From a virus (lineage: Duplodnaviria; Caudoviricetes), in the IMG/VR virus record IMGVR_UViG_3300037424_000434, positions 64,001 through 128,000 of that record: a stretch of 64,000 nucleotides of DNA; one strand, 5' to 3'. Shown here piece after piece: positions 2,666-59,239 of this stretch (position 1 is the first letter of the stretch; every line of letters begins with the position of its first letter). The notes under the pieces were generated by a model that was not told the DNA's origin, made no database searches, and was given only the letters and a program-made list of their open reading frames with translations. Position numbers and translations under genes: made by a program.

Positions 2666-3118
2666 ATGAGACTATATAACTATCTATATGAACGGTACCT
2701 AACATCTGTTGAAACTAACCACAATATGGAAATATTCCTTAATCCATCTGCGGAAGAATTAAGAAGTATACCCTCCTTCCCAGAGTATAGATTCTTAATC
2801 AATTTTAAAACTAAAGAATTCTATGCTTGGCATGTCCAAATGTTCCATGTATCTGCTATGGATTGGATACGACATGAACATCTCTCCTTATTGCCAGACT
2901 TTAATCAATACTGGAATGGTAAAAATAATGACTTTTTGTTCACTGGTTCTGTTGATCCAGATAAAACAATACACTCTGATCTCATAACTAGTGTTATAGA
3001 AAATGGCGATAATCTCAAATTACTTAAATTTGACTTCAAATGGATGAAACAATATATCGATATTAAAGAACTCGAATATCTATTGCTACATGGTGATAAA
3101 AAGAAAAAATGGCGATAA
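2666..3118 (+). CDS. Putative capsid-internal protein, paralogue family A
   Basis: N-terminus MRLYNYLYE; clear paralogue of 1136..1594; TATAAATA at 2522. Confidence 0.7.
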   Translation: MRLYNYLYERYLTSVETNHNMEIFLNPSAEELRSIPSFPEYRFLINFKTKEFYAWHVQMFHVSAMDWIRHEHLSLLPDFNQYWNGKNNDFLFTGSVDPDKTIHSDLITSVIENGDNLKLLKFDFKWMKQYIDIKELEYLLLHGDKKKKWR

Positions 3119-3174
3119 TCCCTTGTCTCTACCCCCCTTTTATGTTATCATTGTCTTTAATATAAACTATTTAC

Positions 3175-3450
3175 ATGGAGATTCCTTTGGATAACATATT
3201 CATAATAGGTGATAGAGTCATTCTTACTTCTAATACATATCCCGATAAAATTTCCAATCCCAGATGGAATGGATATTTTGGCCAAATTATTGGATCTGTA
3301 ACTCACTCTTTTACTCCAAGTATTAATGTTCTTACCGTTTTTGTTGAATGGGATAATGGAGCACATAACTCATATTATCCCTTTGACTTGTCTCTATATC
3401 AAAATATGTCCCCACCTATTCAGTTCCCTGAGGATCTATTCATTTTATAA
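3175..3450 (+). CDS. KOW/SH3-like small protein with FPEDLFIL tail
   Basis: IGDRVIL...NPRWNG...VEWDNGAHNSY; paralogue of 1756..2034. Confidence 0.7.
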   Translation: MEIPLDNIFIIGDRVILTSNTYPDKISNPRWNGYFGQIIGSVTHSFTPSINVLTVFVEWDNGAHNSYYPFDLSLYQNMSPPIQFPEDLFIL

Positions 3451-3915
3451 ACCCTTATTTGAAAATAATATATTCTACCTATTCCTTCTCTAGTCTACGG
3501 AACAATATTGCCCCATGTCAAAAAGTCTGTCTATACCCCCCCCCCACCTAAACCCTTTCTAATATGTCTAACTTATTAATATCATTAGAAAAATATCACA
3601 CTACATATGATATAAAATAATGGGGCATTTTGCCCCTATTCAATGAAGGTATCTATTCCTCTCCCACTCCTATGTACTCTTTGTTTATATATAACTAATA
3701 TTGTTGTATTATTTCCTGATGCCAATAAATTCTTTGATACCAAAGAATAAAATATCTGTTTTTTAATGATGATTTTATAATTCCTTTGATACCAAGGGGA
3801 AACAGTGTGTCAACTGTTATAAAGTTAAACGATCCCATCGAGTCCGAGTCATTTTGAAAAATATTTTTCTCTCAACCCTACATTTAAAACTAGACATTCA
3901 ATTTTTCATATACAC

Positions 3916-44677: not shown

Positions 44678-45526
44678 GTGTCTAATATCACATCAAAACA
44701 AGAAGCATCTAATAAGTTCAACGAGACTCTATTATTTAAAAAATGTAAACTTCTATCTACATATAAAAATAATAGAACACCTGTTGATTTGGAATGTATA
44801 AACGGTCACATATTCAAGAAAACCCCTTCTGATTTTAGACGAGGGAGTGGGTGTCCTAAATGTTCCGGTAAATGTCCCGAACAGGCTAAAATCAATTTCG
44901 TTGAATTATTAAACAAAGAAGGTTATGATTTGATCTCTCCTTATGTAAAAGCATTATCATGTGTCAGTGTTAGATGTTCAGTTGGTCATATTTTTGATAT
45001 GAGGCCTAATAACTTTAAAATGGGTCATAGATGTCCTAAGTGTGCGGGACTGTGTTCAGAACAATCAAAAGAACATTTTATCATAAATTTAAAAGATAAT
45101 GGATATGAATTACTATCAAAATATATAAACATTTCAACTAAAGTGAACCTGAAATGTCCAGAGGGTCATATATGGAAGGTTACACCTAATGATTTCAAAA
45201 ATGGTAACAGGTGTCCTCATTGTTCTGGTTCTACCGGACAAAGAATGTTACAAGAAATGTTATTAGGTCACATCAAAAGTCCAGTAATCTACAATGACCG
45301 TAAGACATTAAATGGTTTGGAATTGGATATCTATTATCCAGAATTAAATATAGCTATAGAATACCAAGGTAATTACTGGCACAACTTACCAGAAAAAAGA
45401 GAAACAGACAGAAGAAAGAAAAGTATATGCAAAGAAAAGGGTATAAAATTATTGGAAGTATGGGATAGTGATTTTTTAAAAAACAAGGATGTTGTTGTTG
45501 ATAATATAATTAAGGAGATATTATGA
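44678..45526 (+). CDS. Free-standing endonuclease: tandem Zn-ribbon repeats plus a Vsr/DUF559-like domain
   Basis: Three CxxGH...RCPxC repeats; LELDIYYPELNIAIEYQGNYWH; own late promoter at 44641. Confidence 0.8.
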   Translation: MSNITSKQEASNKFNETLLFKKCKLLSTYKNNRTPVDLECINGHIFKKTPSDFRRGSGCPKCSGKCPEQAKINFVELLNKEGYDLISPYVKALSCVSVRCSVGHIFDMRPNNFKMGHRCPKCAGLCSEQSKEHFIINLKDNGYELLSKYINISTKVNLKCPEGHIWKVTPNDFKNGNRCPHCSGSTGQRMLQEMLLGHIKSPVIYNDRKTLNGLELDIYYPELNIAIEYQGNYWHNLPEKRETDRRKKSICKEKGIKLLEVWDSDFLKNKDVVVDNIIKEIL

Positions 45527-46926
45527 TATTAGGAGTTGTTGATGGTACCTCCATAGAGAAACTTACAAATGGTAGCCAGAAAAAAATTATATTTGAGTGT
45601 GATGTTTGTCATGATAAAGTAGAACAATCATACCGTAATTATTTAAAACAAAATAACGGAAAATTTTGTAGAACCTGTAGAAATACACATACATCCAATA
45701 GACCAGATGTGAAGAAGAAGATATCTGATAATAGTACAAAAATGTGGTTAAATCCCTCTCATAGGAAAAAAATGGTTGAAGATGGTCTTATATCAAGGGC
45801 CGTTAAAAAATCTTGGAATAATGGCAGGAAACCAATAAATAATATTTTTGTAGAGAACACCACAAAAAAACGGGAATTGATTGAATTGGTTAATGGACTT
45901 GGATATGAATATATTAATTCATATATTAGAAAAAATAATGGAACGTGTATTAAAGTAAAATGCAAAGAAGGTCATATAACAATAAAAAGATTGTGTTCCA
46001 TTAGATCAGGCAAAATATTATGTGTTGAATGTTGTAAACATTTTTCTCAAGCAGAACGAGATTTATCTAATTATATAAAATCTCTTGGTTTTGTTGTAGT
46101 GGAAAACGATAGGACAATCATCAAACCATTAGAGTTGGATATTGTTATTCCTGAAAAGAAAATAGCGATTGAATATTGTGGTTTGTTTTGGCATGGAGAA
46201 ACCAAAGGCAAACACAATAAATATCATCTTAACAAATTGGGGAAATGTGAGTCGGAAGGATATCGACTAATAACCATATTTGAAGATGAATGGGCTAATA
46301 AACAAGATATTGTTAAGTCTAGATTGAAGTATATATTAGGTCAAGGTGGGAGAACGGTATATGCTAGACAATGTGTTGTCAAGGAGATATCACCAAAGAT
46401 AGCCAATACATTTATCAACAAATACCATTTACAAGGTTCAACGGGTAGTTCTATTAAATTAGGTCTTCATCACAACGGTGAACTGATTGCTGTTATGACA
46501 TTTGCAAAACCATCAATATCAAAAGGCAAAAAGTCATTTAATGATATATATGAATTATCAAGGTTTTGTTCTTCCTGTCAGGTTGTTGGTGGGGCGTCAA
46601 AATTATTATCCCATTTCAAGAAAAATTATGAATGGAATGAAATATTTACTTTTGCTGATTTAAGATGGTCGGAAGGTAATCTATATAAGCAGATAGGGTT
46701 CAATCACACAGGGGAGACAAAACCTAATTATTGGTATTTCAACACACAAAAACTAGGTGTGAGTAGGAAGCACAGATTTAATTACAGAAAAGACAGATTA
46801 CCATCTCTGTTTGGTAATGTTGATATGTCTATGACCGAATGGCAAATCATGCAGTCTCAGGGATTTGATAGAATATGGGATTGTGGAAACTTACGATATA
46901 AAATAACCAATAATGTGATTGGATGA
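45523..46926 (+). CDS. Putative homing endonuclease: Zn ribbon, Vsr-like domain and C-terminal conserved phage domain
   Basis: CDVC...CRTC; LELDIVIPEKKIAIEYCGLFWH; YARQC...ELSRFCS...GGASKL...FADLRWS...RIWDCG. Confidence 0.75.
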   Translation: MILGVVDGTSIEKLTNGSQKKIIFECDVCHDKVEQSYRNYLKQNNGKFCRTCRNTHTSNRPDVKKKISDNSTKMWLNPSHRKKMVEDGLISRAVKKSWNNGRKPINNIFVENTTKKRELIELVNGLGYEYINSYIRKNNGTCIKVKCKEGHITIKRLCSIRSGKILCVECCKHFSQAERDLSNYIKSLGFVVVENDRTIIKPLELDIVIPEKKIAIEYCGLFWHGETKGKHNKYHLNKLGKCESEGYRLITIFEDEWANKQDIVKSRLKYILGQGGRTVYARQCVVKEISPKIANTFINKYHLQGSTGSSIKLGLHHNGELIAVMTFAKPSISKGKKSFNDIYELSRFCSSCQVVGGASKLLSHFKKNYEWNEIFTFADLRWSEGNLYKQIGFNHTGETKPNYWYFNTQKLGVSRKHRFNYRKDRLPSLFGNVDMSMTEWQIMQSQGFDRIWDCGNLRYKITNNVIG

Positions 46927-51424: not shown

Positions 51425-52609
51425 ATGAAGAAAAATTATGTTCTGGATACAAATGTACTATTAGAAAATGAGAATTGTATTAAGATTTTAAGGAATGGAG
51501 AAGAGAATGGTATATACATTCCTGCCACAGTTATTGAGGAACTGGACACCCTAAAGAGAGACAAAAGAAAGAGACATCAGGTCATGAGAGCTATACACGC
51601 TCTCAGTGAATACAAAGACTATATCACCATTATACATAATGGCACTAAACATGAATCCCCTGATAACTTTATCCTAAAAGAAATTCAAGCCAATATCGAT
51701 AAGATAGAGAATCCCATATTCGTGACAAATGATAATCTTCTACGGTTTAAAGCAGAAAAAATGAACATACCCTCCGAAGATTTTAAAGATAGCAACCCAT
51801 TCCAATCAGAATCCCAGAGATATACAGGGTTTGTTAATGTAGATGACGGTGAAATCTTGGAAAAGAACTGTTACTATTGGAAAGAAGGAAAACTGCATTT
51901 CAACAATCATTACGGTGAAGAGAGTTTGGTTGTTGACAGAGAAGTATGGAAGGTCGCTCCTCGCAGCCAATACCAAAAAGCAGCAATGGATCTGATCATG
52001 AATGATGATATTGATCTAGTAACAATCCAATCTGAGGCAGGCTTTGGGAAAACATATTTGACCCTTGCTGCAATGTTTGATCAGGTGTTTGAAAAGAAAA
52101 AATTTAAAAAGATTTTTGTATTCAAAGCAAACATCGAAATTGGAAATGAGCTTGGATTTTTGCCGGGAGATGTGGGGGCAAAAATGTATCCATATTTTCG
52201 ACCTATCCAAGATTTAATGGAAAAGCTCCATGATCTTCGACCAGCCAATAGAGCATGGGAAGACCCAACAGAAAACACTCCATTACTTAATCGCAAATGT
52301 GTTGAGATGTTGCCGATCAATTTCTTGAGGGGCATGAATATCGATAACGCTATTGTTCTTATAGACGAAGTTCAAAATCTAAGCAGAGACGAATTGAGAA
52401 CAGTTCTTTCTCGTATGGGGGAGAATGTTAAGGTCATTTGTACAGGTGACGTTAGACAAATAGATAATATCCATTTAAATCAAGAGAATAATGGATTGAA
52501 TTGGATGGTGAGACTGTTTAAAGGGCAAGATAATTATGGTCATATAGTGCTTGGAGGCAGTAAATCAAGGGGTCCAATAGCAGATTTAGTGCGCGAAACA
52601 AAATTATAA
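51425..52609 (+). CDS. phoH: PIN-PhoH protein
   Basis: PIN YVLDTNVL; AGFGKT, GFLPGD, INFLRG, LIDEVQNL, VICTGDVRQID. Confidence 0.93.
   Translation: MKKNYVLDTNVLLENENCIKILRNGEENGIYIPATVIEELDTLKRDKRKRHQVMRAIHALSEYKDYITIIHNGTKHESPDNFILKEIQANIDKIENPIFVTNDNLLRFKAEKMNIPSEDFKDSNPFQSESQRYTGFVNVDDGEILEKNCYYWKEGKLHFNNHYGEESLVVDREVWKVAPRSQYQKAAMDLIMNDDIDLVTIQSEAGFGKTYLTLAAMFDQVFEKKKFKKIFVFKANIEIGNELGFLPGDVGAKMYPYFRPIQDLMEKLHDLRPANRAWEDPTENTPLLNRKCVEMLPINFLRGMNIDNAIVLIDEVQNLSRDELRTVLSRMGENVKVICTGDVRQIDNIHLNQENNGLNWMVRLFKGQDNYGHIVLGGSKSRGPIADLVRETKL
52515..52573 (+). repeat. phoH 3' segment, duplicated at 53656..53714
   Basis: 53/59 nt identical by manual alignment. Confidence 0.9.
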
Positions 52610-52619
52610 TATCACACGA

Positions 52620-53708
52620 TTGGATCAATGTCTAGATATGAAAATAGATTATTCGCATAGATTCAGGGATAACGTTGAACTTGTTGGATACGAAATGATA
52701 GGAGAATATGTTAATAGTAGTGTTCTTGTGAAATTAATATGTGATAGTGGTCATATATTTTCAATTAGACCAAATAACTTTAATAATGGACAACGTTGTT
52801 CTGTGTGCTCAGGGAAGAACAGAGAATATGCAAAATCCTCTATGGTCGAGTTGTTATATAAAGAGGGATATATGCACAAATCTGAGTATATAAACTCCAA
52901 TACAAAAATGAAATTACTTTGTCCAGAAAATCATGAATGGAACGTAACCCCGAACGATTTCAAAAAAGGAATTAGATGTCCTAAGTGTGGGAACAAGTGC
53001 AAAGAACAATCTAAACAAGATTTTATTAATTTGGTGGAGGAGTGTAGTTATACATTGCACGAAGAATATACTGGAGTGATGAATCGAGTGCTATTAGAAT
53101 GTGATAGAGGCCATAAATATAGAACAAGACCAAACGATTTTAAAAAAGGTTATAGGTGTAAAAAATGTTATACCGAAAACGTTATACAAAAATCCTTTGA
53201 AGGTTTTAAATTTATATTAAATGAGAATGGATATAAATTGAAAGATGATTATATAAATTCGACGACAAAAATATACATCATATGCCCCGAAGGTCATGAT
53301 TGGTATGTAGCTCCAAATGATTTTATTAACCACAATACACGTTGTCCCCATTGCCAAGGAAGTTCTGGTCAGAGAAGATTACAAGAATTTCTGACAAAAC
53401 ATATAGACAGAGATGTAGTATACAATGACCGCAAGACACTAGATGGATTGGAATTAGATATATACTATCCTGATCTAAAAATAGCAGTGGAATATCAAGG
53501 TGATTATTGGCACACACTACCAATGGCCCTAATAAGAGATAAAAGAAAAAGAATGTTATGCGAGAAAAAGAACATAAAACTAATAGAAGTATGGGAAAAA
53601 TATTATGTTACAGATGAAGATAATATAAACAATGAAGTGTTGGAGAATATAAAATTGTTTAAAGGTCAAGATACTTATGGTCATATAGTGCTTAGAGGCG
53701 GTAAATAG
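52620..53708 (+). CDS. Free-standing Zn-ribbon-repeat/Vsr-like endonuclease ending in a PhoH-derived tail
   Basis: Four CxxGH/NH...RCxxC repeats; LELDIYYPDLKIAVEYQGDYWH; ends LFKGQDTYGHIVLRGGK. Confidence 0.8.
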   Translation: MDQCLDMKIDYSHRFRDNVELVGYEMIGEYVNSSVLVKLICDSGHIFSIRPNNFNNGQRCSVCSGKNREYAKSSMVELLYKEGYMHKSEYINSNTKMKLLCPENHEWNVTPNDFKKGIRCPKCGNKCKEQSKQDFINLVEECSYTLHEEYTGVMNRVLLECDRGHKYRTRPNDFKKGYRCKKCYTENVIQKSFEGFKFILNENGYKLKDDYINSTTKIYIICPEGHDWYVAPNDFINHNTRCPHCQGSSGQRRLQEFLTKHIDRDVVYNDRKTLDGLELDIYYPDLKIAVEYQGDYWHTLPMALIRDKRKRMLCEKKNIKLIEVWEKYYVTDEDNINNEVLENIKLFKGQDTYGHIVLRGGK

Positions 53709-53805
53709 AGGGGTAGACGGTAGACGGTTTTTAATAGAGAACATACAAAATAAAATAAAATAAAATAAAATAAAGTATTAGGGAAGGTGTGTTATTGCAG
53801 GTAAT

Positions 53806-54138
53806 GTGAGATATGACGAATATGTTAAACGACCAAACGAAGAACATGAATACACAGAAGAACAGATTCGAGAGGTTGTTAAATGTAAAACCGATTTGAT
53901 GTATTTTATACGCAACTATATATATATTGTACATCAGGATTCGGGCGTACAGTTGTTTGATCCATATGACTATCAGATAGATTTGTTAGAAAAATTTCAA
54001 AATCATAGATTTAACGTATGTCTATTATCTCGACAATCGGGTAAATGTTTAGAGGGTGATACTGTCATAAAACTTCGTAATAAGACCACGGGCGAAATCA
54101 AAGAAATAACAATGGAAAATTTTTTTAACCAAACATAA
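53806..54138 (+). CDS. terL: Terminase large subunit fragment 1: extein 1 (80 aa) plus IntN-1 (30 aa)
   Basis: YFIRNYIYI...YDYQ..LL...RFNVCLLSRQSGK then CLEGDTVIKLR...; IntN at 54046..54135. Confidence 0.93.
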   Translation: MRYDEYVKRPNEEHEYTEEQIREVVKCKTDLMYFIRNYIYIVHQDSGVQLFDPYDYQIDLLEKFQNHRFNVCLLSRQSGKCLEGDTVIKLRNKTTGEIKEITMENFFNQT

Positions 54139-54239
54139 ACCCGATTACTAGGCTAATAAAAATACAGTAAATTTTGGTATTATTGGTTATTGAGAGATAG
54201 ACAAAGAAAGTGTGATTAAAGAATGTTTGGAGTATTTGA

Positions 54240-54947
54240 ATGGCAGAATTTGTTGAAGAAAAATATAGTGATGAATGGGAAGTAGAAACACCCGATGGAT
54301 GGAAAGATTTTGGGGGTATAGGGAAAACAATAGAATATCAAGTATATGAGGTTTGTTTTACTGACAACACTTCTATTAAATGCGCCGATACTCATATTTT
54401 TATATTAAATGGAGTCGAAGTTTTCTGCAAAGATTTGGTATCAGGTAATGTAATAGATTCCATTGAAGGAACCTGTAAAGAAATATCACATATTATCAAA
54501 ACAAAAGATTGTGATAATATGTATGACTTGTTGGGTGTTGATGGTTCAATATATTATACTGACAATGTTGCTTCTCACAACTCAACTATTGTTGCCGCTT
54601 TTGCTTTATGGTATGCATGTTTTCACGGACACAAAAATATCGGTATAGTCTCGAACAAAGAAGAATCAGCAAAAAACTTTCTACATCGATTAAAGTATAT
54701 GTATGAACTAATGCCGGGTTGGTTGAAGCCCGGTGTACCCGGTTGGGCGCAAAAGACTGTTGAATTCGACAATCATACGAAAATTTATACTGCTGCAACA
54801 TCCAAAGATTCATTCCGTGGTGAGCCGATGGGGATGTTGATTTGTGTGACTGGAGATAACACCGTGAAATTACGGGATAAAATCACTGGTGAAGAGGTGA
54901 CAATGACAATGGAAGAACTGGCCAATGACCTGAGAATGGATTCATGA
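54240..54947 (+). CDS. terL: Terminase large subunit fragment 2: IntC-1 (114 aa), extein 2 (87 aa), IntN-2 (34 aa)
   Basis: ...YYTDNVASHN|STIVAA (junction 54581/54582); ...FRGEPMGMLI|CVTGDNT (54843). Confidence 0.93.
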   Translation: MAEFVEEKYSDEWEVETPDGWKDFGGIGKTIEYQVYEVCFTDNTSIKCADTHIFILNGVEVFCKDLVSGNVIDSIEGTCKEISHIIKTKDCDNMYDLLGVDGSIYYTDNVASHNSTIVAAFALWYACFHGHKNIGIVSNKEESAKNFLHRLKYMYELMPGWLKPGVPGWAQKTVEFDNHTKIYTAATSKDSFRGEPMGMLICVTGDNTVKLRDKITGEEVTMTMEELANDLRMDS

Positions 54948-55807
54948 CTACATACAAAAGAGACTACAAAGAAGAGTTCAACGATTTGGTTGAAAGTGAA
55001 GGTTATGTCCTTTTATCTGAGTACAAAAAAGACAAAGAACGTGTTGGTATAAAGTGTCCGAATGGTCATATCTATAAAATAAAACCAAATACTTTCAAAA
55101 ATGGTTGTAGGTGTTCATCTTGTCCTACAAAAAGACAAGTAAAATCAAAACAAGAATTTTTTGATATGTTATATGTTGATGGTTATGTTATCACAACAGA
55201 ATACGTTGATGTAAGAACAAGGGTGGGTCTGATGTGTCCAAAAGGTCACGAATGGACCACTACCCCTCATGGATATAAAAAGGGGTATAGGTGTTCGATA
55301 TGTGCAGGAAATAATCATAGTTACGCTAAAGACGAATTTTTAGGGATGATAGAGGAAGAGGGTTATAGTTTAATATCAGATTATATCAACTCAACAACAA
55401 GAATAAAAATTAAATGTCCAAATGGACATGAATGGGATGCAATACCATCCGAATTCAAACATCAATATTTTAGATGTCCTATATGCGCGGGTAGTTCTGG
55501 CCAAAGATTATTACAGGAAATGTTATCAGAACATATTGATGATGAAGTGGTTTATAATGACCGCAAAATTCTTGGTGGACTTGAGTTGGATATATACTAT
55601 CCAAAATTGAATATTGCAATAGAATATCAGGGTAATTATTGGCATTCATTGCCAGAAGTTGTTAAACGAGACGAAAGAAAACGACAATTATGTGGTAATC
55701 TTGGTATCAAGTTAATAGAGGTATGGGATACTGATTTTTTAAACGACAAACAAACTGTTATTAAATATGTTAACGAGGAAAGGTGTTTATGGAACAGGAA
55801 TTCATAA
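54944..55807 (+). CDS. Free-standing Zn-ribbon-repeat/Vsr-like endonuclease between IntN-2 and IntC-2
   Basis: CPNGH/CPKGH...RCxxC repeats; LELDIYYPKLNIAIEYQGNYWH; overlaps both flanking terL ORFs. Confidence 0.85.
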   Translation: MTTYKRDYKEEFNDLVESEGYVLLSEYKKDKERVGIKCPNGHIYKIKPNTFKNGCRCSSCPTKRQVKSKQEFFDMLYVDGYVITTEYVDVRTRVGLMCPKGHEWTTTPHGYKKGYRCSICAGNNHSYAKDEFLGMIEEEGYSLISDYINSTTRIKIKCPNGHEWDAIPSEFKHQYFRCPICAGSSGQRLLQEMLSEHIDDEVVYNDRKILGGLELDIYYPKLNIAIEYQGNYWHSLPEVVKRDERKRQLCGNLGIKLIEVWDTDFLNDKQTVIKYVNEERCLWNRNS

Positions 55808-57813
55808 AGAATAGTAGGTATGAGATATATGGGGAGTCTGGTTGGGAGAATTTTGATGGTGTTGTTGTTAATACAGGAGACTTTGATATTTATGAAATAA
55901 AAACCGATAACCATTCAATAAAATGTACAGATAAGCACAAAATATATACCAGCGAGGGCGTGAGTACAGCCGATGAGGTGGAAAGGGGTGACATTTTATT
56001 TATACAGGGTGGCATTACCGAAGAGGTTATATCAACACAATATACAGGCAAACAAAACACTACATACGATATATTCAACAGTGATTCACATAAAGTCCAT
56101 ATAAATCAAATACTTACGTCTAATTGTGACGAATTTGCGTTTGTTGAGCCGAGCTGGAAAGCAGAAGAATTTTGGGCATCAAACTACCCAACCATTTCAG
56201 CCGCAGAGACTTCTAAAATTATTATCATCTCATGTGTTGCGGGGGATACCTATGTTTACACAGATAATGGCGTAAAACAAATATCCAATATTATCGGTGA
56301 TAGATGTGTTGGTGGCCATGAAATAGAATCCTATGGGGTATTGGGTAAAGATAAGATAAGAGGTGGCCGTTTAATCGTCAATAGCGGTATTACAAAAACC
56401 AGAAAAATCATCACAACAAATTCGGAATTGGAGGGCAGTTTAGACCATAAACTATGGTCATCAAAAGACGGTGTTATTGGTTGGCATAAAATATCTGAAC
56501 TAAATGAAGGAGATTATGTTTCACTGCAATATGGAATGAATGTATGGGGTAATAATGATCATATTGGATATGTATCACAGAAGAGAAGAAATAAACAAGG
56601 GAAAAGTTTAAATGTCGAAAATATAACAGAGGATTGGGCATATTTATTTGGATTATATATATCAGAGGGGTGTGCTGATAAGTACAGACTCAATATTTCA
56701 TGTGGCGATGATATATCGGATATTTTTGATAGACTGGGGCTTTCATATTCATGCAGTGATGGTATGCATTATGTTACAAGCAATCTATCATTAATAGAAT
56801 TATTAGAGCACGTTGGGTTCGATATAGCTAAAAACGCACCAGATAAAATAATACCAGACAGATTGATGTGTATGTCAAAAGAAAATATAGCGGCAATGTT
56901 GAGTGGGATTTTTGATGGTGATGGCTTTTCTCGAAAGGACAAAGGAACCATAGGAATAGGATTGTCTTCAAAAAAACTCGTTCAACAGATACGAGTGTTG
57001 TTAATGAACATGGGTATGTTGGGTGAGTGGTATGAGGTGGAATCAAAACCAACAGATAAGGTCAAAGTCCATTCAATACAACACAGATATCATTTGGATA
57101 AATCTTCATCTAAGAAGTTTTATGAAGAAATTGGTTTTAGACTAAAAAGAAAACAATTAAATGAGAACATTTTAGGTAAGGTCAATGAACCAAAAAATGA
57201 CATTATACCATATTCAAAAACTTTTATTGACGGTAAAGGTATAGTCAAGGATGTCGAACAAGTTTTGGGTTCATATGTATATAATAGAGGATTGTCTGAT
57301 AACATTTCAAGAGGATTGATGATTAGGATAAAGGAATCCCTTGGTGATACATTCAGCGAAGAGATTCATGAATATTTTAACAGGAATGTATCAGAAAACA
57401 TCAAGTGGTGTAAAATAAAAAGCATAGAAGAATCAAAAAATACGGTTTATGATTTCTCATTACCCGATAATATCGATGATGAGTGGTGCCATTCAGTTAT
57501 ATATAATGGATTTATAGGTCATCAGACACCTAACGGTCTGTATAATAAATTTCATGAAATATACAAAAACGCAGACGAAAAAACCAACTCATTCATAGCA
57601 ACTCGATATGATTATTCAGCCGTTCCGGGCAGGGATGCTGAGTGGGCTAAAGTTCAGAGAATGAACCTAGGGCCAATCAAGTTCCAACAGGAATTTGGAT
57701 GTTTTTTTCAAGATACTGTAATCACTATACAAAATGAAGAAACAGGTTTAATCGAAAATATTACCATAGGGGAACTAAATAAACGAATGGGGCAAGAGAT
57801 TGGTCATGAATAG
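55783..57813 (+). CDS. terL: Terminase large subunit fragment 3: IntC-2, extein 3, contiguous intein 3, extein 4, IntN-4
   Basis: ...ILTSN|CDEFAFV (56124/56125); KIIIIS|CVAGDT (56233); FIGHQ|TPNG (57525/57526); FQQEFG|CFFQDT (57700). Confidence 0.93.
   Translation: MFMEQEFIKNSRYEIYGESGWENFDGVVVNTGDFDIYEIKTDNHSIKCTDKHKIYTSEGVSTADEVERGDILFIQGGITEEVISTQYTGKQNTTYDIFNSDSHKVHINQILTSNCDEFAFVEPSWKAEEFWASNYPTISAAETSKIIIISCVAGDTYVYTDNGVKQISNIIGDRCVGGHEIESYGVLGKDKIRGGRLIVNSGITKTRKIITTNSELEGSLDHKLWSSKDGVIGWHKISELNEGDYVSLQYGMNVWGNNDHIGYVSQKRRNKQGKSLNVENITEDWAYLFGLYISEGCADKYRLNISCGDDISDIFDRLGLSYSCSDGMHYVTSNLSLIELLEHVGFDIAKNAPDKIIPDRLMCMSKENIAAMLSGIFDGDGFSRKDKGTIGIGLSSKKLVQQIRVLLMNMGMLGEWYEVESKPTDKVKVHSIQHRYHLDKSSSKKFYEEIGFRLKRKQLNENILGKVNEPKNDIIPYSKTFIDGKGIVKDVEQVLGSYVYNRGLSDNISRGLMIRIKESLGDTFSEEIHEYFNRNVSENIKWCKIKSIEESKNTVYDFSLPDNIDDEWCHSVIYNGFIGHQTPNGLYNKFHEIYKNADEKTNSFIATRYDYSAVPGRDAEWAKVQRMNLGPIKFQQEFGCFFQDTVITIQNEETGLIENITIGELNKRMGQEIGHE
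56233..57525 (+). mobile_element. 431-aa LAGLIDADG intein with C-terminal Gln
   Basis: CVAGDTYV start, LFGLYISEG and LSGIFDGDG motifs, VYDFSL...NGFIGHQ end, +1 Thr. Confidence 0.92.
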
Positions 57814-58906
57814 CATGACAGAAGTAATTAGCAACACAAAATATAAAATTCTAACCCCCACAGGATTTCAATATTTTTCTGCAATACAAAAACTAAAGAA
57901 ACCAACCATTAGGTTTATATTTGAAGATGATTCTGATTGTACCGTGTCCACAGGCCATAAATTCTATATTGATGGTAAAATATTATTGTCTGATGACGTG
58001 GTGATTGGTGATAGTCTCTACCACCAAGATAAATGGTATACCAAAGTTGTTGGTATAGAGTATTTAGGGGAATCAGATGTATATGATTTAATGGACGTAT
58101 CCAATGGTAACTTGTATTACGGAAATGGTATTTTGTCTCATAATTGTGAGTTTATAGGATCAAGTAACACTGTCATTGATGGAAAAACTCTTGAGAGGCT
58201 TATGAAGCACCGTAAAGAGCCCGAGTCGTTGGATATGGGGGGTAAGCTGCGTATATGGGAGAAACCCAAGCAGGGGGCAACCTACGTCCTTGGAGTGGAT
58301 ACATCCAAGGGTATTGGTGGTGATTCGAGTGTAATTCAGGTAATAAAGATATTAGGTGTCAATCCAATCCAAATGCGACAGGTGGCGGTGTGGGAAGATA
58401 AATTTACAGATGTTTACAAATTTGCCGAAGTTGTCAATAAAATGTCGTATTATTATAATGATGGATATTTGATGGTTGAGAATAACGCCGAGGGGTCAGT
58501 AGTTGTTCAGAGACTGTGGTGGGAATACGAGAACCAAAATTTGATAAATACAGGTGGTAAAGTCAAAGACCTTGGTATTCGCGCTACAGGTAGCACCAAA
58601 CCTCGGGCCGTTCTTCTCATGAAGAAAGTTCTTGAAGACAGAATGATCGAAATATATGACGAAAGAACTGTTGCCCAGATATCAGACTTTCAAGACTTGG
58701 GTGGCAATAAGTTTGGTGGCGTTAATATAAACGACGATTTGGTTACCTCTTTGTATTGGGCTATATATGTCATTGAGATGCAAGTATTCGACGAGTCATT
58801 TACTTTTTCGGAAGAACAGGACGAGGAAGATGATTTCTGGGGGGATTTTTTGAGCGACTGGGAAGACGAGGCCCGCGAGGTTGATTGGTCATGGCTTCAT
58901 GATTAA
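57806..58906 (+). CDS. terL: Terminase large subunit fragment 4: IntC-4 plus extein 5 (nuclease domain, 253 aa)
   Basis: KILTPTGF...YYGNGILSHN|CEFIGSS (58144/58145); YVLGVDTSKGIGGDSS, MVENN, NDDLVTSL. Start may be 57806 or 57815. Confidence 0.93.
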   Translation: MNSMTEVISNTKYKILTPTGFQYFSAIQKLKKPTIRFIFEDDSDCTVSTGHKFYIDGKILLSDDVVIGDSLYHQDKWYTKVVGIEYLGESDVYDLMDVSNGNLYYGNGILSHNCEFIGSSNTVIDGKTLERLMKHRKEPESLDMGGKLRIWEKPKQGATYVLGVDTSKGIGGDSSVIQVIKILGVNPIQMRQVAVWEDKFTDVYKFAEVVNKMSYYYNDGYLMVENNAEGSVVVQRLWWEYENQNLINTGGKVKDLGIRATGSTKPRAVLLMKKVLEDRMIEIYDERTVAQISDFQDLGGNKFGGVNINDDLVTSLYWAIYVIEMQVFDESFTFSEEQDEEDDFWGDFLSDWEDEAREVDWSWLHD

Positions 58907-58933
58907 TGATAAATAATAACAGAGGAATTGGAA

Positions 58934-59239
58934 ATGAAATTTAAGGATTTTTTGAAAGAAGGCGTCTATAAAACAGATAACTGGAATCTCGAAGACATTA
59001 CTTTCCGGTTGGAACAGGCCCGCGCTCAGCTCAAATTCATTGAAGCCGAAATGAAGGTTCTTTCAAAAAAACCTATACCTCCCGGTGACATGAACAAGAA
59101 ATTGGCGTGGGATAATAAAACAGAGGCACTTGAGGCCAGATATGAAGCAACAAGAACAAAAATCAAAAACTTCTCAGAAAAGTTGGCTAGACACCAAGAG
59201 AAAATGAGGGGTGGTTCTGACCGGAGGGCGAGTCACTAA
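58934..59239 (+). CDS. Putative capsid-internal protein
   Basis: MKFKDFLKEG; GATAAATA at 58908. Confidence 0.65.
   Translation: MKFKDFLKEGVYKTDNWNLEDITFRLEQARAQLKFIEAEMKVLSKKPIPPGDMNKKLAWDNKTEALEARYEATRTKIKNFSEKLARHQEKMRGGSDRRASH

Follow-up and report, generated by a model that had tools for sequence, protein, structure and literature searches.

A large terminase gene broken by four inteins

We analysed a window of 64,000 nucleotides (nt), bases 64001-128000 of a single 235,765-bp IMG/VR virus record from an uncultured phage of ~236 kb (G+C 39%, completeness estimate 98%). Within it, the gene for a T4-type large terminase (TerL) is interrupted by three atypically split inteins and one contiguous LAGLIDADG intein. 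The 101-nt spacer between the halves of the first split intein is the subject of this report; it is very probably the leftover of a deleted homing-endonuclease gene that had split the intein. Positions are those of the window unless another source is named, and related viral loci carry L numbers.

TerL (53806-58906; Pfam Terminase_6N and Terminase_6C) is encoded as four same-strand open reading frames (ORFs), F1-F4. The split inteins lie in Walker A (site 1), at ..GMLI/CDEF (site 2) and at ..QEFG/CEF (site 4), a slash marking the extein junction. Their N-terminal halves (IntN) have 30-37 amino acids (aa) and their C-terminal halves (IntC) 112-114 aa. The four ORFs and their parts are as follows.

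53806-54138, + strand: F1, comprising extein 1, IntN1 and a stop
54240-54947, + strand: F2, comprising IntC1, extein 2 and IntN2
GTG 55783 or ATG 55789 to 57813, + strand: F3, comprising IntC2, extein 3, intein 3, extein 4 and IntN4
57806-58906, + strand: F4, comprising IntC4 and extein 5
53806..54045, + strand: TerL extein 1, 80 aa, ending in Walker A ..SRQSGK (L013 alignment up to SGK/STIV)
54046..54138, + strand: IntN1, 30 aa (54046-54135), starting CLEGDTV, plus stop (homologous to IntN at ~40 loci at the same TerL site, ..RNKxTGEI..)
54139..54239, no strand: spacer between the intein 1 halves, exactly 101 nt, with no significant RNA structure
54197..54244, + strand: endonuclease 3' remnant IDKESVIKECLEYLNG (tail model; full-length profile positions 323-338 of 338; orthologues L102 and L103)
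54229..54232, + strand: GGAG, putative Shine-Dalgarno motif, 7 nt upstream of the IntC1 ATG, inside remnant codons L-E (TTG GAG)
54240..54581, + strand: IntC1, 114 aa, block B CADTH, ending ..ASHN, +1 Ser (C-half alignment; PDB 6dsl_B CatC, E=2.6e-8)
54582..54842, + strand: TerL extein 2, 87 aa (Pfam Terminase_6N; L013 alignment)
54843..54947, + strand: IntN2, 34 aa, starting CVTGDNT, plus stop (L013 junction alignment)
54944..55807, + strand: free-standing Vsr-like homing endonuclease, 287 aa, intact (Pfam DUF4379, CapR; PDB 3r3p; orthologues L097 and L103)
55789..56124, + strand: IntC2, 112 aa, ending ..LTSN, +1 Cys; alternative start GTG 55783 (C-half alignment, extein junction)
56125..56232, + strand: TerL extein 3, 36 aa (L013 alignment)
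56233..57525, + strand: contiguous intein 3, 431 aa, with a nested LAGLIDADG domain, ending ..GHQ, +1 Thr (Pfam LAGLIDADG_3, E=1.5e-11; junction IIIS/../TPNG)
57526..57699, + strand: TerL extein 4, 58 aa (L013 alignment)
57700..57813, + strand: IntN4, 37 aa, starting CFFQDTV, plus stop (L013 junction alignment)
57806..58144, + strand: IntC4, 113 aa, ending ..LSHN, +1 Cys (PDB 6dsl_B CatC, E=1.3e-16)
58145..58906, + strand: TerL extein 5, 253 aa, nuclease domain, plus stop (Pfam Terminase_6C; L013 alignment)

Exteins were delimited by cutting at Cys1 of each intein and after its terminal Asn (Gln for intein 3). The end of IntC2 was placed from the extein junction; the C-half alignment had stopped one residue before its Asn. 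The five joined exteins give a protein of 514 aa with 69% identity to the TerL of L013, a related viral contig with the same gene order in which TerL is uninterrupted (520 aa), and all four joins are seamless against it (SGK/STIV, GMLI/CDEF, IIIS/TPNG and QEFG/CEFIG). The locus is thus a fractured gene, one conserved gene present as adjacent same-strand ORFs bounded by split-intein halves. A free-standing endonuclease gene between the halves is intact at split 2, reduced to a 16-codon remnant at split 1 and absent at split 4.

An earlier note on this DNA had described this layout from the letters alone, and its anatomy was borne out with all coordinates: the 101-nt spacer with a stub frame at 54194-54256; the contiguous intein 3 with its internal LAGLIDADG domain; the intact ORF 54944..55807 that splits intein 2, overlapping both the F2 stop (ATGA) and the F3 start; and the spacerless split 4, where the F4 ATG at 57806 precedes the F3 stop at 57811-57813 in an 8-nt overlap, ATGAATAG.

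The spacer at split 1 contains the tail of an endonuclease gene

The stub frame opens after a TGA at 54191-54193, reads EIDKESVIKECLEYLNGRIC and a stop over 54194-54256, and overlaps the IntC1 ATG at 54240. We employed a hidden Markov model (HMM) of 24 columns, made from 14 non-redundant tails of full-length endonucleases of other phages, and searched the complete six-frame translation of the genome (12,429 peptides) with it. This gave the stub 27.8 bits (E=9.4e-7). The sole other scoring peptide, at 28.9 bits, is a remnant in a helicase gene of the same genome (see below), and the next, unrelated one had E=0.43. A full-length endonuclease profile of 338 positions aligned the stub to its last 16 (323-338). 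At the DNA level, shuffle tests gave z=12.3 for the stub against the helicase remnant and z=8.5 against the remnant of L072.

Pfam DUF559 spans the tail of the intact endonuclease gene of L103 to profile position 108/109. Because this model runs through the tail to its last positions, the tail belongs to the nuclease fold, as its final helix, and not to the intein. The phase of the stub relative to the IntC ATG is that of the intact genes in L103 and L027. The stub thus combines similarity to endonuclease tails, the same phase to the IntC ATG and intact family members at the orthologous site, and, judged by its sequence, it is a real remnant of a lost homing endonuclease.

As a Vsr-like/DUF559 gene the stub can no longer function: only positions 323-338 are present, no catalytic residue remains, a start codon is missing and the ancestral stop has been lost. 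The second IntC1 codon is GCA in the window and GCT in L103/L104, which is synonymous for IntC1. The change from GCT to GCA turns the endonuclease stop TGA into AGA, so that the dead frame runs three codons further. Together with the in-frame TGA just upstream of the stub, this silent, stop-losing change means that the host frame was kept while the endonuclease frame was broken.

The remaining 58 nt at the 5' end of the spacer gave chance-level scores against the L102 spacer, the whole L103 endonuclease gene with its 5' untranslated region, and the split-1 region of L097. A gapped DNA alignment hints at degenerate homology back to ~54168, which is not significant on its own. RNA folding of the 101-nt spacer yielded z=0.36 and no hairpin like that of the gp41-7 locus (see below), and scanning 53600-58950 for promoters and terminators brought up no signal at the spacer beyond that of shuffled sequences.

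Orthologous loci form a graded series from intact gene to near-erased remnant

Viral contigs were scanned with the C-half alignment, which returned 80 loci from 326 candidates, mostly TerL genes that an intein of this kind interrupts at the identical Walker A position. In addition, orthologues of F2 with 68-74% identity were taken from a protein database and their contigs compared (L097 and L101-L104). A blastn search with 53700-59000 against 50,697 deposited phage genomes gave zero DNA-level matches.

In L103/L104, whose F2 is 71% identical, split 1 holds an intact 358-aa gene with ROS/MucR-type zinc fingers and a DUF559 core that ends in CVIKECLEFMNG and a stop. This stop overlaps the IntC1 start ATG GCT GAA (M-A-E, as at the start of IntC1 in the window). 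The nearest orthologue, L102, has a 170-nt spacer with a 53-codon remnant that retains part of the ..DYWHG.. core motif and ends in KQDKESVIKECLEFLNG and a stop. The window stub and this remnant share DKESVIKECLE at 11/11 residues. In L101, KECLEFING and a stop stand immediately upstream of the ATG. More distantly, ~25 viral contigs carry a gene of 320-410 aa in the split-1 gap whose tail follows the pattern ..DY.NDK...I.KCLEFLNG, its stop overlapping the IntC ATG (TTA AAT GGC TAA).

Split-1 spacers are graded in length, at 380, 368, 282, 240, 176, 113, 101, 98, 41, 28 and 14 nt. On the full-length profile, the remnants within such spacers occupy the following positions.

L031: 219-337
L076: 252-337
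L048: 251-338
L083: 277-338
L059: 303-338
L072: 309-338
L018: 322-338
Window: 323-338
L065: 324-338, faint

Across at least 8 independent contigs the remnants form a nested set, each anchored to the 3' end of the gene; their differing 5' limits imply several independent deletions. Two allele pairs capture such deletions directly. The flanks of L078 and L083 show 99.6% and 98% identity, and L083 lacks ~826 nt from within its endonuclease gene. Between L053 and L055, a 957-nt deletion left the tail fused in frame to IntN.

L011, L020 and L057 represent the contiguous stage at site 1: their mini-inteins have an unrelated linker without stub-type sequence, and the conserved block is therefore attributed to the endonuclease and not to the intein.

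Two further observations concern these contigs. In L019, a 1492-nt split-1 spacer includes a TnpB-type gene (2710-3906; Pfam OrfB_IS605 and Cas12f1-like TNB, E ~1e-26) adjoined by a 30-codon endonuclease tail remnant (..NTCLEFLNG and a stop), so that the split-intein gap is occupied by an insertion-sequence gene. TerL with two or three atypical split-intein C-halves is common among the 80 contigs (L081, L093, L029-L031, L049, L072 and others); having a terminase fractured more than once thus does not set this phage apart.

The 3' end of the endonuclease gene overlaps the start of the downstream intein half

In most loci the tail residues C-L-E-F are encoded as TGT TTG GAG TTT, which places GGAG 7-8 nt upstream of the IntC ATG, and this ATG itself overlaps the codons N-G-stop of the endonuclease tail. 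The block TGTTTGGAGTT stands at the same distance from the ATG in L027, L029, L031, L036, L039, L043, L044, L072 and the helicase locus. In L091, GGAG has the same distance within ATGGAGTT. The stub DNA is 71-76% identical to the L072 and helicase remnants, whereas the adjacent IntC are only 50-54% identical.

A plausible explanation is that the endonuclease 3' end doubles as the translation-initiation region (GGAG plus ATG) of the downstream intein half. As TerL is essential, deletions would be limited to those that spare GGAG and ATG, so that only those keeping the 3' module would survive and the intein would stay split. We put the chance that the 3' end of such endonuclease genes has been co-opted as an obligatory translation-start module at about even. 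If it has, the selfish gene can decay from its 5' side only and clean removal is impossible. The fossil would then identify atypical split inteins that lack an endonuclease as coming from invaded ancestors and not from spontaneous breaks, with a reach over the many 14-380 nt gaps in metagenomes and perhaps over the AceL-TerL type used in protein engineering. The spacer would also stay open to re-invasion (compare L097, below), giving a full homing cycle inside a permanently split intein.

Predicted splicing of the four inteins

All four inteins start with Cys1, and their +1 residues are Ser, Cys, Thr and Cys in order. The short N-halves of the split inteins have block A only. The C-halves contain blocks B, F and G, the block B His and block F Asp are invariant in their alignment, and the terminal Asn is present in IntC1 and IntC4. 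With IntN of 30, 34 and 37 aa and IntC of 114, 112 and 113 aa, the split inteins have the sizes of atypical ones. IntC1 and IntC2 are only ~23% identical to IntC4. The phage would make four polypeptides, each short N-half docking onto its cognate C-half and completing the Hedgehog/intein (HINT) fold; the 514-aa TerL would then result from three splicing reactions in trans and one in cis.

Complex prediction for IntN1 and IntC1 gave a score of 0.55, against 0.02 for the best of three controls, with contact agreement between runs of at least 82% and a partner pLDDT (predicted local distance difference test) of at least 69. The mark for a pass is reached by 51/78 solved complexes and 2/108 mismatched pairs; at scores of 0.60 or lower, however, only 5/78 solved complexes reached it, as did all 4 of the passing mismatches (of 180), and the prediction lends weak support. 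The pass may also reflect memory, because a like complex (6DSL) has already been solved.

Origin of the spacer

What is directly observed is the anatomy, the homology, the series of orthologues and the nesting of the 3'-anchored remnants. The history that we propose has two steps. A free-standing gene for a ROS/MucR zinc-finger plus DUF559/Vsr-like endonuclease would have inserted into a mini-intein just past its first beta-strands, splitting it. The endonuclease gene would later have been deleted, and the 101-nt spacer would be what remains, with only the last 16 codons of the gene. That the site-1 spacer is such a leftover is, as said above, very probable.

There are three other possibilities for the origin of the stub. 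It could derive from the window's own zinc-ribbon (CapR/DUF4379) Vsr-like type, the type now at split 2, and the earlier note had compared it to the tails of these endonucleases. Both types belong to one nuclease superfamily, the window paralogues match positions 258-336 of the site-1 profile at 29-35 bits, L097 carries a 342-aa CapR-type endonuclease at split 1, and the stub DNA aligns to the split-2 gene with z=4.0. That alignment, however, reaches a score of 29 where shuffled sequences reach up to 30, those to the other two paralogues stay at chance level (z=0.2 and 1.4), and the tail HMM gives the window's own endonuclease, which is of a different subfamily, 4.9 bits against 27.8 for the stub. 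The remnant in L102 with which the stub shares 11/11 residues is of the DUF559 type, and the CapR-type gene of L097 stops 24 nt short of the ATG and is not the source of the stub tail. No orthologue with a CapR-type endonuclease that ends in ..VIKECLE[FY]LNG and overlaps the IntC1 ATG was found among the loci compared. We regard a zinc-ribbon donor as very unlikely; the resemblance that the note had seen is significant against the gene tails of relatives instead. Alternatively, the block could be a leader owned by the intein, a ribosome-binding region of IntC older than the endonucleases, and the stub no remnant at all. The block does contain GGAG and the IntC ATG and is better conserved than the surrounding inteins. 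Yet Pfam DUF559 and MTES_1575 align through the tail to their last profile positions, the contiguous mini-inteins lack the block, the remnants of L102, L031, L048, L076 and L083 reach 30-100 codons further into the nuclease core (including ..DYWHG..), and the recent deletions in L078/L083 and L053/L055 show the direction of change, which leaves an intein-owned leader equally improbable.

The similarity could finally be due to chance or composition in AT-rich DNA, the 101 nt being merely intergenic, from a stop and a start that arose in an intein linker. The stub is only 16-20 codons long, and the spacer has no fold, promoter or terminator signal. Against this stand E=9e-7 over the six-frame genome, where the single other match is itself an endonuclease remnant, DNA shuffle z-scores of 8.5-12.3, and a phase relative to the IntC ATG that is the same as in intact genes. 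With the evidence from L102 and L103, the genome-wide E and the shuffle tests refute a chance origin of the stub, to which we give next to no probability.

Several points weigh against parts of the invasion-and-deletion history. The order contiguous, invaded, deleted is the most economical one and was arrived at by economy, not from a rooted phylogeny. The deletion end-points in the window lineage cannot be placed from the 5' 58 nt. The tail may also be so well conserved because the endonuclease spread horizontally in recent times, and we infer the Shine-Dalgarno role of GGAG from position and conservation alone. Likewise, we infer protein trans-splicing activity from the conserved blocks only. 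IntC2 ends in ..TSN without the penultimate His, and the C-terminal residue of intein 3 is Gln and not Asn, so that a slow or impaired step is possible at both. Inteins ending in Gln are known to splice, some of them slowly (PMC4031507). The GHQ/T end of intein 3 is conserved in the orthologue L097 (junction ..GHQ/TPNG, window 57523-57528); intein 3 is missing from L101 and thus polymorphic among relatives.

The earlier note had also proposed that endonuclease invasion splits the intein and later decays away, and that all stages of this process stand in one gene. Checking the orthologous loci, as it suggested, revealed intact endonucleases at split 1 in L103/L104 and in the ~25 distant contigs, and the orthologous series and tail similarity uphold invasion followed by decay; the donor is of the ROS/MucR+DUF559 type, however, and the decay is not free, as the 3' end is kept. 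Intein 3, with its LAGLIDADG domain in frame at the canonical site, is an alternative outcome.

Endonuclease types and related breaks

The split-2 endonuclease has three treble-clef zinc ribbons and a nuclease core (Pfam DUF4379 and CapR; MTES_1575 below cut-off), and its residues 186-273 match PDB 3r3p_A (I-Bth0305I) with E=1.6e-4. The window has three or more paralogues of it, with further ones elsewhere in the genome. The stub donor type, by Pfam, combines ROS/MucR-type zinc fingers with a DUF559/MTES_1575/Vsr-like core; no intact gene of this type was found in this genome.

The helicase locus lies outside the window (genome 19047-23000, G000:C1), where a DnaB/gp41-like helicase is fractured twice. 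At its Walker A break (genome 19777-20172), an atypical intein N-half and endonuclease repeats form a fusion. The endonuclease gene has lost its catalytic middle, and a frameshifted piece corresponding to the last 47 profile positions ends in QDQESVIKECLEFIHA and a stop. The helicase tail and the TerL stub are identical at 30/35 nt, whereas their IntC halves are only 28% identical; this likeness fits an endonuclease that may have moved between related inteins independently of them. At the second helicase break the split is of the classical sort and holds an intact endonuclease of 371 aa (genome 21475-22587).

L097 (217 kb) is the closest large relative. Upstream of the IntC1 ATG, next to the CapR/DUF4379-type gene at its split 1, it has a short stub, KFMEFIDG and a stop, which is identical to L103 at 22/27 nt and has no tail HMM score. 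This arrangement is no more than suggestive of a second invasion upstream of what resembles an older stub of 8 codons.

At split 4 of the window, no endonuclease remnant was detected by the tail HMM; L101 and L097 have a 365-aa DUF559-type gene there. The site in the window may reflect complete endonuclease loss or may never have been invaded. In L097 (8527-9770), the split-4 endonuclease is followed by a 40-codon ORF resembling an older IntN4 tail (..ITIGELYERMEQEI..), and a new IntN4 lies upstream of the endonuclease, which gives the impression of a half-intein that was duplicated or displaced. IntC4 does not come next there, and the locus breaks off before TerL continues.

The same intein family and endonuclease type split other P-loop genes after GK in L016 / L061 (4554-7131), L053-L055 and L063/L064, namely a clamp-loader-like AAA gene (..GPGSGK/C), a ..GPKAGK/C gene and an ..ETGCGK/C gene. 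The element seems, from these target sequences, to favour Walker A sites in general.

The terL gene is flanked by a PIN-PhoH gene upstream and structural genes downstream. Between phoH and terL (window 51425-52609 / 52620-53708), a gene for a 362-aa zinc-ribbon Vsr-like endonuclease is present that is missing from the syntenic L013. Its last residues (..LFKGQDTYGHIVLRGGK and a stop) repeat the C-terminal region of the upstream PhoH (..LFKGQDNYGHIVLGGSK..; tblastn E=1.3e-4 over 65 aa), and the tail appears to be a duplicated stretch of the target gene that came in with the insertion. Elsewhere in the window (45523-46926), a 467-aa ORF joins a Vsr-like core to a C-terminal Mom-family domain (Pfam PF25680, E=3.4e-7); C-terminal domains like it (..RIWDCGN..) occur at genome 150681-152327 and 154661-156199 and in L011.

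Comparison with known systems

The origin of naturally split inteins is usually explained by the fractured-gene model of 2009. Split inteins with a short N-half are sought for peptide-based protein labelling and multi-fragment ligation, and this one protein has three natural, mutually divergent ones. The loss step of the model had previously rested on one locus that simply lacked an endonuclease. The same break is now seen with an intact gene, with remnants of 119, 87, 53, 30 and 16 codons, and empty; near-identical allele pairs differ only by deletion, and the downstream ribosome-binding site and ATG are a plausible reason why the break cannot heal.

Fractured genes were described as split inteins with a free-standing endonuclease between the halves (Dassa, London, Stoddard, Schueler-Furman, Pietrokovski 2009, PMC2677866). 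Figure 5 of that paper gives a model in which a mini-intein is invaded (step II) and the endonuclease is lost (step III, at one locus, gp41-7); its authors proposed that the invader's 3' end supplies the downstream initiator Met, and they listed one terminase locus with an unusually long C-half (PMC2677866). The window agrees with this picture in that a split intein interrupts a conserved phage gene and the 3' end of a Vsr-like ORF overlaps the downstream start: at split 2 the endonuclease ends at 55807 against starts at 55783/55789, and at split 1 the stub frame overlaps the ATG at 54240. It differs in that the one gene carries three such breaks and a cis intein, that loss in its lineage is documented by a coding remnant and an orthologous series and not by absence alone, and that nested, 3'-anchored remnants occur across many contigs. 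The gp41-7 locus kept an upstream hairpin, whereas the window spacer has no significant structure. Intein 3 corresponds to step IIa of the model, a side branch rather than a precursor of atypical splits. The invasion/loss model is thus already published, and the locus is a well-documented further example with a modest mechanistic point. What it adds is (i) three atypical breaks and a cis intein in one gene and (ii) a recognisable coding fossil, an orthologous series from intact gene to fossil, and the rule that remnants are anchored at the 3' end. A literature search for endonuclease remnants in split-intein spacers found no relevant report among the papers searched, which does not prove that none exists.

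GOS-TerL, AceL-TerL and the engineered Cat intein (PDB 6DSL) are characterised, atypically split TerL inteins (PMC11766414). Like those of the window, they break phage TerL and have a short IntN (25-37 aa), a long IntC (104-115 aa; ~104-122 aa for the class) and Cys+1. IntC4 is closest to Cat (6dsl_B, E=1.3e-16), with the same +1 Cys-Glu, and IntC1 matches it at E=2.6e-8. Unlike in these systems, sites 1 (Walker A, +1 Ser) and 2 (+1 Cys, CDEF) of the window are other insertion points.

I-Bth0305I represents a Vsr-like (EDxHD) homing-endonuclease family (Taylor et al. 2011, PMC3239194; PDB 3R3P). The nuclease core of the split-2 gene is of this kind, as is that of the stub donor by Pfam (DUF559, MTES_1575, Vsr). 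The N-terminal modules are different, being treble-clef ribbons in the split-2 type and ROS/MucR fingers plus repeats in the stub donor, and I-Bth0305I belongs to a group I intron whereas the endonucleases here are associated with inteins.

At one and the same site, related genomes hold intact, truncated, frameshifted and near-erased copies of the gene, and L097 has a different endonuclease type at the same break. Both features resemble the homing cycle of invasion, fixation, degeneration, loss and re-invasion that Goddard and Burt reportedly set out in 1999. The difference from that cycle is that loss here appears constrained: precise excision would be impossible, since a part of the host gene would depend on the 3' end of the element for its translation.

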